Positions 595 through 59,497 of a stretch of 64,000 nt of DNA are shown in pieces. Position numbers and translations under genes: made by a program. Origin of the DNA: Eledone cirrhosa (lineage: Eukaryota); assembly GCA_964016885.1 (NCBI GenBank), contig OZ024745.1, positions 56,482,001 through 56,546,000 of the forward strand. Direction: 5' to 3'. Every line of letters begins with the position of its first letter. The first letter of the stretch is position 1. The notes under the pieces are model-generated. The model saw nothing but the letters and a program-made list of their open reading frames with translations, was not told the origin of the DNA and ran no database searches.

Positions 595-1021
595 ATATTG
601 TTATGCTTTGGGAGGGTCATGTTGCCAATAAGAAACAGGGGCACCAGTTGCTTTCGCTGCAATTTATTATAAATTAAATTTATAATTTTAAGAATTTATA
701 AATTTCCGGTTGGTTGGTTCCATAACCGGACGGTTGTTCATATATTGTCAGAGTTCTGTCGTCAAACATTCTGTGACATCTTCAGTGACTGGGGATTCTT
801 TTCTTTGTTTTTGTGTCTCTCAGTCACTGAAGAGGTCATAGAATGTGTGACGAAATATCTTTGACACTATATGTACAGCCGTCCGCTTATGGAACCAACC
901 AACCAATCGGAAATTTATAAATTCTTAAATTTATAAATTTAATTTATAATAAATTGCAGTGAAAGCAACTGGTGCCCCTGTTTCTTATTGGCAACATGAC
1001 CCTCCCAAAGCATAACAATAT
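595..1021. mobile_element. Non-coding fold-back PLE derivative (inverted pLTR pair, ~200-bp arms)
   Basis: 595-793 is the reverse complement of 818-1021 with scattered mismatches. A hammerhead sits at the inner end of each arm and the right end abuts (TA)n. Confidence 0.85.
823..865 (+). ncRNA. Type I hammerhead ribozyme
   Basis: GTCA-CTGAAGA-G-GTCATA-gaatg-TGTGAC-GAAA-tatc-TT-TGAC: stem I GTCA/TGAC, canonical core, 6-bp stem II. The mirror copy at about 747-789 (-) has GACA in place of GAAA. Confidence 0.85.
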
Positions 1022-1282
1022 ATATATATATATATATATATATATATATATATATATATATATATATATATATTTAAATATATAGGAAAAACAAATACTC
1101 GACGTGAAGTATAGAAAAATGAAGAATTTAATCAAATGTTCGTTTTTAACATATGTTTCAATACAATATAAGTCTACGTAATGCTGGTTGCATAATACTG
1201 TTATTATTATGCACACTCATTAGCAATACATTAAATATTGAATTTCTTCAGAAAGATTTCAAAAAGATTTCAAAGTATCGAC

Positions 1283-2675
1283 GGTCTCGGGGGTTTCAGG
1301 TTTTCGTCGGTTTTGGGGATTTCGCCTGTTTAGGGAGTTTATGCTTTTTCTGGGGGTTAGGAGGTTCCAGGTCTTTTGGAGGTTTAGGGGCTTTCGAAGG
1401 TATAGGCGGTATAGGTTTCGGGCGATTAGGCGATTTCCTGGGTCTATAGGTTTTCTGGGGATTAGGCGGTTTCGGGGGTCTCTGGGTGTAACGGTGATTT
1501 AGTTGGTTTCGAGTGTTTTGGCGGTTTCAGTTGTTTTATGTGTTTAGTCGCTTTCGGGGATTTAGTCGGTTTCAGGGATTTAGGTGGGTTAAGGCGTTTC
1601 AAAGGTTAGGTGGCTTGGGGTTTTCGAGTTTTATGGTTTTCATGGCTTCAGGAGGTTTAGGGTTTTTCGTAGGTTTCAGCAGTTTCGACGGTTTCGGCGA
1701 TTTCCGGGCTTCCGAGGTCTTTGGCGGTTTCGGGGTATTCGGGGGTTTAGGTGGTTTCAGGTACTTAGGGATTTTGGGGGGTTTAGGTAGTATCGGGGGT
1801 TTGCGAGATTTGTGTTTTTGGGGTTTATAAGTGGTTTAGGGGGCTTCCAGATCGGTGGTTTAGGCGGTTTCGGGGGTTTATGAGATTTAAGGGGCCTAAG
1901 GGATTGCGGGAGCTTTAAGGTGTTCTGGGTTTTAGTTGGTTTCAGGTGTTCAGGAGGTTTAGAGGTTTTTGCGGGTATGGGCGGTTTTGGGTTTTCGGTG
2001 GTTTAAGGGGTTTAGGCAGTTTCAGTGGCTTAGTGTTTTACGGGTGTTTAGTCGGTTTCGGGGGTTTCGGTGGTTTCGGGGGTTTCGGTGGTTTCGGGGG
2101 TTTAGGTGGTTTCGGGGGTTTAGGCGGTTATGGCGGTTTCGGGGGTTTAGGCAGTTTCAGGGTTTGAGTAGATTTCGGGGGGCTTAGGGTTTTTCTGGGG
2201 TCTAGGCGGATTCGGTGGTTTCGGATGTTTCGGGGGTTTCAGGGGCTAGGGGATTTCTGAGGTTAGGCAGTTTTCGGAGTTTCGGTGGTTTAGGCGATTT
2301 CGGAGGATTCGGGAGTTTAGGGGTTTTCATGGATTTAGTCGGTTTCCAGTGTTTTGGGTTTAGGGGTTTTCATGGGTTTTGGCGGTTTCTTGTGTTTAGG
2401 TGGTTTTGGAGATTTAGGGGTATTCGGGAGTTTAGGGTTTCCGGGTGTTAGGCGGTTTTGGCGGTCTGAGGGGCTTACGGGTTTTCCGGGTTTTAGGCGG
2501 TTTCAGGGATTCAGTAGGTTTAGAGGTTTTCGCGGGTATAGGTGGTTTAGGTAGTTTCGTGGATAAGGCCGTTTCGGGGGTTTGGGCGGTTTCATGGTTT
2601 AAGCAGTTTCGGGTGTTTAGGCAGTTTGGTGGTTTCGGGGGTTGGGCGGTTTCGGGGGGCTCAAGGGTATCGGTG
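1283..2675. repeat. Degenerate G/T-rich 9-bp minisatellite (GGTTTCGGG / GGTTTAGGN)
   Basis: Clean 9-nt period at 2054-2160, decaying outward; strong strand asymmetry; no long open frame. Confidence 0.85.
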
Positions 2676-2739
2676 GGATAGTTAGTCTCATGTGGTTTGG
2701 CCGTTTCTGTTGTTTTATAACTTGATAGATTTTATACTT

Positions 2740-2928
2740 AAAGAATTACATCAGAAATTCCGTAAAACTAATATATCTACTATTAAGGATATCAATATAG
2801 AAGGATTAGCAATAGTTAATAAACTAGATTTAGCTGACCGAACGGAGCCGTTTGAACCTCGACAACCAACCTTTAATCTAAAAGACCATAAAAGTAACTT
2901 TGAATCCAACCCTTGTATTAGATTATAA
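2740..2928 (+). pseudogene. PLE reverse transcriptase N-terminal fragment
   Basis: NKLDLADRTEPFEPRQPTFNLKDHKSNFESNPCIRL matches the LKDHKxNFxxNPxxRL finger motif of YRDD-type PLE RTs. Confidence 0.7.
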
Positions 2929-56724: not shown

Positions 56725-57095
56725 TTATGTTTACCGCACCAGAATGTTCAGGTTTTTATAGGAATTCATGTGAAGTTGAAGTAGAGAAGAAGGAGGATGT
56801 GACAAAGACGAGAGAGATAGGGGGGTTTTTCATAGTTGTTGAGGTAAAACAGAGGGGAGGATAAAATATGATAATGAAGTCTAGATATGGACTAGTCCAA
56901 CTGTGTGTGTGTGCTAGAGAGATGGTAGACGTTGATAGGTTTACGATCTATGATAGATGGAGGCAGGGGAGATTAGGTTGAGTGACTTGTAAAGTATGTA
57001 GGAGGAGATGTTGAATAGGGGAGATGTGGTTAATAGAAGGCATAGCAATAATCCATGGGGATAGATAGAGGAGGTAGAAGGAAGAAGTCGCAGGA

Positions 57096-58666
57096 TCAAA
57101 TCAAGTCAGGTTTGTATTTCGAGAACGTAGCCTTGAGTCTGTGATTGCAATATAGAGTCCTTTCCGTTCTGTTGTTGAGAAGAGTATAATTGGATTTTAG
57201 TATGTAAAATAGCTCCATATTGCATAATCGGCAGTAAGGCTGGCCTGCACGATATGCGGAAGCACTAGAGAGTTTTGTCCATTTCAAAGTGTATTGCAGG
57301 TTACTTTCGCGCAACTGCCAAATTGTATTGGCTAAGGTAGTTACGGAACGGTATTTGATGTTCTTCATCGAACTACGGTGTTGGTACCAACGAGATTTAA
57401 AAGTGGTAGAGGTACAGCCGATATAGTGCCATCTTCGGTTATCCGATTCAACGGTGCATTGATACACCATATTGGATTCCATGCATTTGTTATTCAGAGG
57501 GCAACGATCAGGTAGGTTGCAGTTGCACTTATCAGCTCCTGTAGTATTATTATCTTGTACAGATTGCGTTAGGTTTATATGTGTGTCTGCTGCAGGAGGG
57601 TTTACATTCAGTGGTTGAGAGTTTGAGGAAGTGTTAATGTAGTTTGGGGTTCTTCGTGTGGATGTGCTGACTAATCGTTTGGAGTTAAGTTTTTTAATAA
57701 TTAGATCGAGATTGGGTGCTGTAGAATATGAAAGCTTAATAGACCTTAGATTTAGTATCTTAGCGTATCGATGTGTAGGAGGAAAATGTGTTTTGATTAA
57801 ATTGAAGAAAAGTGAGGAAATTTTAGGAGATGTTGAGGCATTGTATATTGGGTTGTACCAAAGGTAGTTACGATTCCGCTTTCTAGCTTGGTTGGATTGT
57901 GTGCTTCTAATTCGACTATGCCTATGCGGAAAGTGTATGTTGTGTATCGTACCTATATTATTATTTATGCTAATGCGTTGTGAGCCCTTATTTCTATATT
58001 GGTGTGCTGGATCTATGTACTCTATTTTGTCTTGGTACCCAGCCGCCTTAAGTGCGTTGTTATAGTAGTAAGCGTGCTCACTAAAGACCTGGGGGGTAGA
58101 TGACAGGCGTGATATTCTAAGGGAGATGGCTCGAGGGATAGACCGTATAACCGATGGATGATTAGATTTATGGTCAACATACATAATATTTTCATTAGAT
58201 TTATGGAATGGGCGGATTTCCCCCGTCTCTAGATTAAATGTTACATCCAAGAAATTTGTTTCAGTCAGGTTGTACTCAAAAGTAATGCTAAAACCTAGAC
58301 TGTTTAAAAATTCGCTAACTTGCTTACTTAATCTTTCTATTTTCTGGTTGCTTAGGTGTTTAGCTAAAAGGAGCGCATCGTCGCGGTAGATACCCCCTTG
58401 TAGATTGCGGAATTTTTTCTCTAGTGCTTGAGCGATGAAGATGCCTACTACGTCTGTAACTTCGGCAGAATCGTTTGAGCCCATCGTGATATCAAAGAAA
58501 GATGGTCTATCTTTGCGCACCCAGTAGCTATCATCGAACTTAATTATGGTTTTTCTGGCCTCAAGGATGATGCCTATTTCCGCGTCGGTTAGGTCAGAAT
58601 TCTCTCCGGCAAACAGTAGGGTCTTATGTAGGGTATCGGGTGATATGGAGGAGTAGTAGTCGTTTA
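57096..58666 (-). CDS. PLE polyprotein C-half: RT (GGIYRDD), CxC linker, GIY-YIG (probably Hydra clade)
   Basis: Open from the junction (INDYYSSISP, motif A) through FDITMGS, YRDD, FLDV, SNHP, WYNP, HFP, CNC..CPL, MVY..YIGCT..FKSRWYQH, CRLC, CNH; no true start codon. Confidence 0.92.
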
Positions 58667-59176
58667 TTATGGAGCTATTTTACATACTAAAATCCAATTA
58701 TACTCTTCTCAACAACAGAACGGAAAAAACTCTATATTGCAATCACAGACTCAAGGCTACGTTCTCGAAATACAAACCTGGCTTGATTTGATCCTGCGAC
58801 TTCTGCTTTCTTCTATCTTCCTTCTACCTCCTCTATCTATCCCCATGGATTATTGCTATGCCTTCTATTAACCACATCTCCCCTATTCGACATCTCCTCC
58901 TACATACTTTACAAGTCACTCGACCTAATCTCCCCTGCCTCCATCTATCATAGATCGTAAACCTATCAACGTCTAGCATCTCTCTAGCACACACACACAG
59001 TTGGACTAGTCCATATCTAGACTTCATTATCATATTTTATCCTCCCCTCTGTTTTACCTCAACAACTATGAAAAACCCCCCTATCTCTCTCGTCTTTGTC
59101 ACATCCTCCTTCTTCTCTACTTCAACTTCACATGAATTCCTATAAAAACCTGAACATTCTGGTGCGGTAAACATAA

Positions 59177-59291
59177 TCTCTGATGATATGGGATCGATTG
59201 TGCATTGGATGTCGAATGCTCTACTAACTATATAATATTATAGATGCAGCGAGATCTAGGCAAACTGATTTCTATTGAAACGTACGTAAGA
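59177..59291 (+). ncRNA. Hammerhead with 90-nt stem II domain
   Basis: TCT-CTGATGA-[59187-59276]-GAAAC-gtac-GTA-AGA, AATAAA 5 nt later; palindromic ACGTACGT stem III. Confidence 0.78.
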
Positions 59292-59497
59292 ACCGAATAA
59301 ATCTCTTTTACTGCATCTTTCTGTTCTTTTTAATTTTTTATACACGCCCCGGAATATAGCTAAACTGGGATATACACCTATTTTCTGCATTACGTTGAGC
59401 ACCACTCTGTTGTAAGCTGACATTCCCCTACACGGTACATAACACTGTGTCCTGGAAAACATTAATGCACTCGTGCATAACCAATTATATATATACA

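Follow-up and report, generated by a model that had tools for sequence, protein, structure and literature searches.

How do Penelope-like elements (PLEs) come to be fixed in (TA)n repeats as head-to-head fold-backs? This question is raised by a stretch of 64,000 nt (hereafter "the window") from the 3.0-Gb assembly of Eledone cirrhosa (GCA_964016885.1, contig OZ024745.1, positions 56,482,001 to 56,546,000), in which pairs of 5'-truncated copies are fused at their truncated ends with both 3' ends pointing outward. An earlier note on this DNA proposed two routes, either priming from both ends followed by joining of the two complementary DNAs (cDNAs), or snap-back of a single cDNA, and regarded the outcome as the default of integration. 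Genome searches revealed that every verified family (E1 and E3-E7) ends at one of two fixed sites, either a short (S) end or, 42-172 nt farther, a tailed (T) end, and that fold-backs combine one S end with one T end almost without exception. This near-strict rule across six families is the new point, whereas the inverted architecture itself is real but already published (PMC8557442). We lean toward the explanation that the fold-backs form by twin priming, with S and T serving as start sites on a single RNA.

The rule was derived from a genome-wide census, in which loci were classified by hand from the top 40 matches per family, i.e., young copies retaining 200-340 nt or more of an arm. It comprises 170 loci (35 of E7, 25 of E3, 27 of E1, 26 of E4, 29 of E5, and 28 of E6), counted apart from the window copies, duplicates (L115, L119, L072, L086, L186), and all E2 and E8 loci. 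Of the loci outside the window, 25 of about 37 for E3 and 35 of about 36 for E7 were viewed at full length and classified, the remainder being left out; flanks were viewed to 1.5 kb on either side for E1 and E4, and for E5 and E6 likewise with 16 loci extended. Two-ended inversions account for 78 loci, partial inversions for 14, and uninverted copies for the other 78. An S end is paired with a T end in 76 of the 78 two-ended inversions (11 in E7, 7 in E3, 15 in E1, 17 in E4, 16 in E5, and 10 in E6), compared with a proportion of 0.5 under independent choice of ends (binomial P about 1e-20), and in 72 of 74 if four arms of 12-25 nt are omitted. The two exceptions, L131 (T+T) and L179/186 (S+S), both also duplicate flanking DNA. 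The verified window copies (E1, E3-E7) are S+T in six of six cases.

The inverted architecture is consequently common in these new families, yet it is not their default. The two-ended share of 46% decreases to about 37% after correction by hand, about 47 pairs having had two chances of being matched. Two-ended inversions outnumber pure direct tandems by 78 to three (the latter counted within the uninverted class; two more tandems carry an inverted cap), but uninverted loci are as numerous as the inversions. A weak control with a long interspersed nuclear element (LINE), whose 5' end was in view at 7 of 29 loci, yielded an inverted second 3' end in none of the seven and one plain internal inversion.

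Self-BLAST of the window was used to locate inverted pairs. All seven insertions described previously were recovered and are named E1-E7 from left to right, with arm identities of 87, 72, 99, 92, 94, 82-94, and 96%, respectively. Outward-facing 3' ends are indicated by the strand of the open reading frames (ORFs; plus in E3, minus in E5, E6, and E7) and by hammerhead cores on both strands. The described geometry therefore stands for all seven, while the assignment to PLEs stands for six: for E2, neither an ORF nor a protein link was found, and its short and tailed ends were seen by eye. As noted before, the seven insertions contain no direct-repeat pair of pseudo-long terminal repeats (pLTRs). 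The boundaries given earlier were too short, as a family tail of 42-172 nt lies beyond one arm of each insertion. The individual parts, with reverse transcriptase (RT) and GIY-YIG endonuclease regions and predicted hammerheads, are:

537..594, minus strand: tail (T end) of E1, with a short TA run on its left; the tail is common to 11 of 30 family anchors.
595..821, minus strand: left (T) arm of E1, with a degenerate hammerhead core at 785.
821..1021, plus strand: right arm (S end) of E1, which holds a hammerhead core at 827; (TA)33 comes next, at 1018-1084.
19129..19545, no strand assigned: E2, an old palindrome of 72% identity with a short end on the left and a tail-like extension on the right (about 19504-19545); candidate PLE.
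21159..21848, minus strand: short arm (S end) of E3, followed by ACTCTC and TA, with a U4C hammerhead variant.
21848..25049, plus strand: long arm of E3, with a 5'-truncated Hydra-type RT/GIY-YIG ORF (21880-23343) and a long 3' untranslated region.
25050..25221, plus strand: tail of E3 (172 nt), representing the 5' leader of the next tandem unit, followed by (TA)n at 25220-25927.
26380..26610, minus strand: left arm (S end) of E4, with a predicted type I hammerhead at 26485; adjoins (TA)40.
26617..26925, plus strand: right arm and tail (26839-26925) of E4, with a hammerhead at 26736.
37570..40080, minus strand: long arm of E5, with its S end at (TA)34, a frameshifted RT, a C-terminal GIY-YIG domain, and, at 37794, a hammerhead core whose stem I is weak.
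40081..40264, plus strand: short arm (142 nt) and tail (40223-40264) of E5; the TA run at 40266-40287 is common to E5 and E6.
40289..41562, minus strand: tail (40289-40330) and long arm of E6, with a GIY-YIG coding region (PF01541, E 1.5e-4, just under the cut-off).
41570..42169, plus strand: short arm (S end) of E6, with a U4C hammerhead variant at 42025, followed by (TA)12.
56563..58667, minus strand: long arm of E7, with its S end at (TA)43, an open 527-aa Hydra-type RT/GIY-YIG frame, and a hammerhead with a 90-nt stem II at 56721.
58668..59488, plus strand: short arm and 146-nt tail (59343-59488) of E7, with a hammerhead at 59180; the junction at 58667/58668 is blunt.

Long (TA)n arrays adjoin one end of E1, E4, E5, E6, and E7. 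With the tails counted, both ends adjoin TA in E1 and E3-E7, which goes beyond the original statement that at least one end does. At 180 search loci genome-wide, window copies and duplicates included, a TA run of at least 8 nt follows 94 of the 104 S ends; for T ends the figure is 54 of 76, with 10 T ends unparsed. The arms had been described as unequal in length, which does not apply to E4 (about 230/222) and E1 (about 225/196), where they are nearly equal. In tandem copies of E3 and E7, the tail continues into the beginning of the ORF and thus represents the leader of the next unit. Two further palindromes, at 19007-19109 and 25414-26182, were also detected in the window.

The S site of E3, which reads ATCTC/TATA (the slash marking the site), shows an additional peculiarity. 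In 12 of 18 E3 S ends (e.g., L034, L047, L051), 2-29 extra TC units are located between the element end and (TA)n, compared with one of 86 S ends in the other families and none of 12 internal S sites within tailed E3 arms. The confinement of these additions to E3 S ends and their absence from internal S sites suggest that RT starts and slips at S, and slippage at initiation is the likely source of the TC units. Alternatively, the element might prefer pre-existing TC/TA compound repeats; the far sides of ten TC-bearing insertions consist of TA or unique DNA rather than TC, as judged by eye.

The families E1 and E3-E7 are PLEs of the endonuclease-bearing (EN+) type. RT and C-terminal GIY-YIG motifs can be read in E3, E5, and E7 and, by eye, in copies of the E6 family, and endonuclease fragments were found for the E1 and E4 families. 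The structural features of EN+ PLEs are present as well, namely tandems (L135, L258, L260, L268, L196), inversions (92 of 170 loci), and tails in six families. A Pfam scan gave a match only for E6 (PF01541, 22.4 bits vs. a cut-off of 22.6) and none in the E3, E5, and E7 frames; for the E7 protein, 56 homologues were obtained at E<=1e-10, nearly all of them unnamed. In near-full family units of E3 and E7, DKT, an RW(R/S) form of RWK, a CxCX5C linker, and the CxxC and CxH motifs are present, while CCHH is absent. One longer copy of the E4 family encodes a Hydra-type endonuclease fragment with the same C-terminal motifs. Judged by sequence motifs, E3 and E7, and E4 by its endonuclease only, fit the definition of the Hydra clade. 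The GIY-YIG domain is likewise C-terminal in the related families E1 and E5, whose linker may be of the Neptune/Nematis type, for which the definition is CX2-5CxxC plus CCHH; longer E1-family copies encode CX4CxxC, while the linkers of E5 and E6 are reduced or broken. The families are less separate than was first stated: some 500 nt of the 3' ORF region show 68% similarity between E1 and E5, and the E3 and E7 proteins are 35% identical. An assignment to the Naiad clade (N-terminal endonuclease, no canonical hammerhead) was rejected, as the endonuclease is C-terminal in E3, E5, E6, and E7. Likewise, miniature inverted-repeat transposable elements (MITEs) or other DNA transposons with terminal inverted repeats were dismissed, as arm lengths and junctions vary and one end is tailed; only E8 is of near-fixed length.

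In the favored twin-priming model, the element protein would nick both target strands. From one target 3' end, synthesis on the RNA would begin at the inner start site (S), and from the other at the outer site (T), with the same RNA as template. Identical primers would be available at the two nicks, since (TA)n has the same sequence on either strand. RT primed at T would presumably displace the S-primed cDNA; joining of the two cDNAs at their 3' ends, which become the truncated ends of the arms, would follow. Both the use of a single RNA and a dimeric enzyme are assumed. A single priming event would leave a solo copy, as found for about half of all loci, and tail-only arms would result where T-primed RT does not get past S. 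To our knowledge, the RT of PLEs is without RNase H. Priming from both ends and joining of the cDNAs, the first of the two routes suggested earlier, is supported in this form. In vitro, an anole PLE cleaved and extended both strands, with two start sites bounding the tail and a predicted dimer (PMC11167929), and twin priming of the LINE L1 can yield internal duplications (10.1101/2024.08.27.596794).

The length of T arms is informative in this respect. In a hand count, T arms were tail-only in 13 of 40 pairs, whereas S arms as short as that were found in 4 of 36 (Fisher P=0.03); such an excess would be expected under twin priming if T-primed RT meets the S-primed hybrid. It is not predicted by the main rival, an asymmetric dimer in which each subunit copies its own RNA, one from S and the other from T. 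This rival, equivalent to the first route of the earlier note with an added S/T constraint, accounts for S+T pairing, for either arm being longer, and for junction microhomology without the need for strand displacement, and dual priming has been proposed for L1 (PMC2837659). Nevertheless, it seems unlikely, as the subfamily match of the arms would require both RNAs to stem from one source: paired E7 arms differ at 0.38 diagnostic sites vs. 4.75 between loci. Without the constraint, two-RNA priming fails because of the S+T rule, as about half of the pairs would be S+S or T+T, while 2 of 78 were observed.

Arm lengths also bear on cDNA snap-back, in which a T-primed cDNA would fold on itself, be copied back to S, and then join the target. 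The T arm is longer in 32 of 68 measured pairs, the S arm in 32, and four are ties (8 of 76 pairs, namely L135, L258, L073, L175, and four with tiny arms, were omitted). Snap-back is feasible for the pairs with a longer T arm; among near-equal pairs the T arm is slightly longer in a ratio of 8:1, and some partial inversions begin 15-20 nt from the 5' end of the main arm. However, it cannot yield the 32 pairs with a longer S arm, including E5 and E7, because neither arm can have been copied from its partner: the S arm contains sequence absent from the T arm, which in turn carries the tail absent from S. Moreover, near-equal arms are no more common than under permutation (13 vs. 10.4, P=0.14), S-ended solo copies are common, and S ends bear stutter-like TC additions. 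Snap-back is therefore ruled out as a general route, and we consider it improbable as the explanation of the fold-backs.

A somewhat more remote alternative is endonuclease resolution of a DNA intermediate, in which the one-sided tail would result from a staggered cut of tandem or hairpin DNA. This was given as most likely by Craig et al. (PMC8557442) and agrees with the tail being the leader of the next tandem unit. On the other hand, later in vitro work ties the tail to two RT start sites (PMC11167929), and variable TC additions at S only are left unexplained.

Pre-formed palindromic masters, transcribed and re-inserted whole, would produce recurrent junctions. The model suits E8, a miniature family in which most of the 20 copies seen have the central junction in common, although the query selected that form. 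For E1 and E3-E7 it fails, because junction coordinates differ among pairs, segmental duplicates excepted, and we give it very little weight as a general explanation. Two E8 copies are present in the window:

18926..19113, no strand assigned: E8 copy, a miniature fold-back of about 190 nt between TA runs, consisting of an 80-nt tail-like arm and a palindrome of 50-60 nt.
26122-26302: second E8 copy.

A first look returned 2777 E8 candidates (loci L309-L328 were viewed) with a near-fixed central junction. E8 may be an S+T unit that has become frozen and is mobilized as a whole, or it may be repeatedly formed from a fixed RNA 5' end.

Least probable of all, in our judgment, is that the fold-backs reflect duplication after insertion at (TA)n or chimeric assembly. 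Such an origin suits the two pairing exceptions, L092, and window 25414-26182, where the flank is duplicated or the palindrome is centered on (TA)n. It predicts identical arms and end types, whereas the arms differ by 1-28%, show private events (a short interspersed nuclear element (SINE) at about 40450-40635 within the hammerhead of the E6 long arm, an 89-bp tandem duplication at 24451-24631 in the E3 long arm), and carry the tail on one side only. Other antisense-to-sense joints of the E5 family occur in contigs from three public runs of a single sample, which speaks against chimeras; the joints 37648 to 40161 and 37629 to 40231 are present in all three. The window's own E5 junction was absent among the contig matches listed from these runs. 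Contigs of run X3 match the flanks of E7 (56563-59488) exactly, and none among those listed carries the window E7 alleles; the E7 insertion may be polymorphic. Palindromes centered on (TA)n, with 3' ends inward or flank duplicated, were observed at window 25414-26182, L092, and L114, and likely represent secondary fold-back duplications arising by a separate process.

Junction sequences provide evidence in both directions. An overlap of at least 2 nt occurs in 11 of 28 junctions vs. 17% in simulation (P=0.005), which is consistent with joining at microhomology. An exact-match measure, distorted by copy divergence, was replaced. Several observations weigh against twin priming of one RNA. The other 17 junctions have less than 2 nt of overlap, and 10 are negative (gaps or complex joints), three of these probably mis-scored. 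The allele signal between paired arms is weaker in E1 (2.36 vs. 3.42), E3 (0.57 vs. 1.82), and E4 (0.33 vs. 1.30), and alleles could be shared because the arms underwent gene conversion or descend from a single active master. The 14 partial inversions reach neither end, and some resemble short snap-backs (L124, L255). No empty target site was seen in a read search that was swamped by a SINE. The S/T classification was made by hand on the top 40 matches. Finally, the element studied in vitro belongs to another clade (Poseidon), and hammerhead cleavage was dispensable there (PMC11167929).

The "ribozyme-bearing" description of the ends holds for families rather than for the window arms. A custom hammerhead descriptor, whose rules were relaxed after family alignments had been viewed (a stricter predecessor matched E4 only), was applied to 30 copies per family with antisense and shuffled controls. 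Predicted type I hammerheads in the pLTR appear to be present in E1 (21/30), E3 (26/30), E4 (25/30), E6 (22/30), and E7 (22/30), at fixed positions 80-190 nt inside the S end, with no antisense passes and at most 0.3% in shuffles. In contrast, 5 of the 14 window arms pass; the short arm of E5 is too short for the motif and that of the left E6 arm is interrupted by the SINE. One of 30 E5 copies passes, with core and stem II conserved and stem I weak, as do 6 of 30 E2 copies at inconsistent positions, some with a TTGAAAA core, a possible U3/A8 form. E3 and E6 exhibit CCGAAGA (U4C) in place of CTGANGA, and E7 a stem II of 90 nt; CCGAAGA core variants of predicted hammerheads are conserved across families (e.g., window 24966, 42025). 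In an Rfam scan of the window, hits at E<=5 were confined to hairpin and microsatellite noise, with no hammerhead family among them. Further PLE ends that are hammerhead-like but have no inverted partner were observed at 20911 (plus strand), which passes the descriptor, and as core matches by eye at 480 (minus) and 42677 (plus).

The local density of palindromes, one about every 9 kb according to the earlier note, proved to be high. Ten 40-kb blocks were searched for palindromes with TA at one end and TA at least 25 nt beyond the other. They contain 13 in 400 kb (0-4 per block), or one per ~31 kb, compared with seven in the 64-kb window (Poisson P=0.006), which is about three times richer; by this rule, E8 and 25414-26182 are among the window's seven, whereas E2 and E3 are missed. 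Of the 13 block palindromes, 5 gave a loose hammerhead match in at least one arm, with motifs unlike those of the window.

Other repeats surround these elements. A young LINE at 7326-12560 encodes a zinc-knuckle-like ORF1, an apurinic/apyrimidinic endonuclease, RT, and zf-RVT, and ends in (ATT)n; its copies are 99% alike, with 936 first-look candidates. A G-rich, degenerate 9/18-bp minisatellite occupies 1275-2718. The SINE-like repeat of ~190 bp is very abundant, with seven window copies at 6180, 33210, 35983, 40450 (the one within the E6 hammerhead), 47390, 53265, and 59572. An open frame at 19521-19946, without a match in the Pfam scan, resembles what we take to be a mariner transposase fragment.

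EN+ PLE units in which a 5'-truncated copy lies inverted at the 5' end, with a tail often on one side only, (TA)n targets, and hammerheads near the 3' end, have been described (PMC8557442), and PMC8969392 gives the same structure. The present families share these features, but their tails measure 42-172 nt instead of 30-40 nt, and the pairings (76 of 78 with one tail), the two-ended inversions (46%), and the rarity of direct tandems have here been counted. E3 and E7 share motifs, (TA)n insertion, and hammerheads with the Hydra clade (PMC8557442), where they are provisionally placed by motifs; their units of 4.3 and 3.1 kb are longer than the "generally <3 kb" of that clade, and the U4C core of E3 and the 90-nt stem II of E7 also differ. 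Poseidon PAc of Anolis (Frangieh et al., 2024; PMC11167929) likewise has two start sites bounding a tail, extends both strands, cleaves AT-rich DNA, and is a predicted dimer, but it is of a different clade, and the available portion of that report treats neither inverted insertions nor the pairing of end types. L1 twin or dual priming (PMC2837659; 10.1101/2024.08.27.596794) resembles the proposed route in that both strands prime, joins show microhomology, and deletions or duplications occur at the inversion point. The second priming site of L1, however, is a variable internal spot, whereas here it is fixed at 42-172 nt from the first, and the product is consequently a long palindrome of the 3' end. 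The origin of tandem and inverted PLE structures was undefined in a 2021 survey (PMC8557442) and unvalidated in the 2024 in vitro work (PMC11167929), and searches of the open literature, subscription papers lying outside this scope, found no count of PLE end pairing and no twin-priming model for PLEs.

It is conceivable, though we hold this only tentatively, that programmed S/T twin priming is a built-in mode of PLE integration in several clades, in which the cDNAs prime each other's second strand and telomerase-like stutter of RT adds microsatellite units. On the order of 100,000 TA-flanked palindromes would then populate the 3-Gb genome, some of them (E8) moving as units. The S/T rule and the TC stutter are new constraints on the open mechanism of PLEs. 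The former excludes unconstrained two-RNA priming and general snap-back and ties the start sites known in vitro to the inverted architecture, while the TC units added at a single start site hint that the RT family closest to telomerase can slip and thereby add repeats. Long palindromes spaced at ~30 kb also matter for genome assembly, for repeat annotation, where such insertions mimic MITEs, and possibly for the formation of double-stranded RNA.

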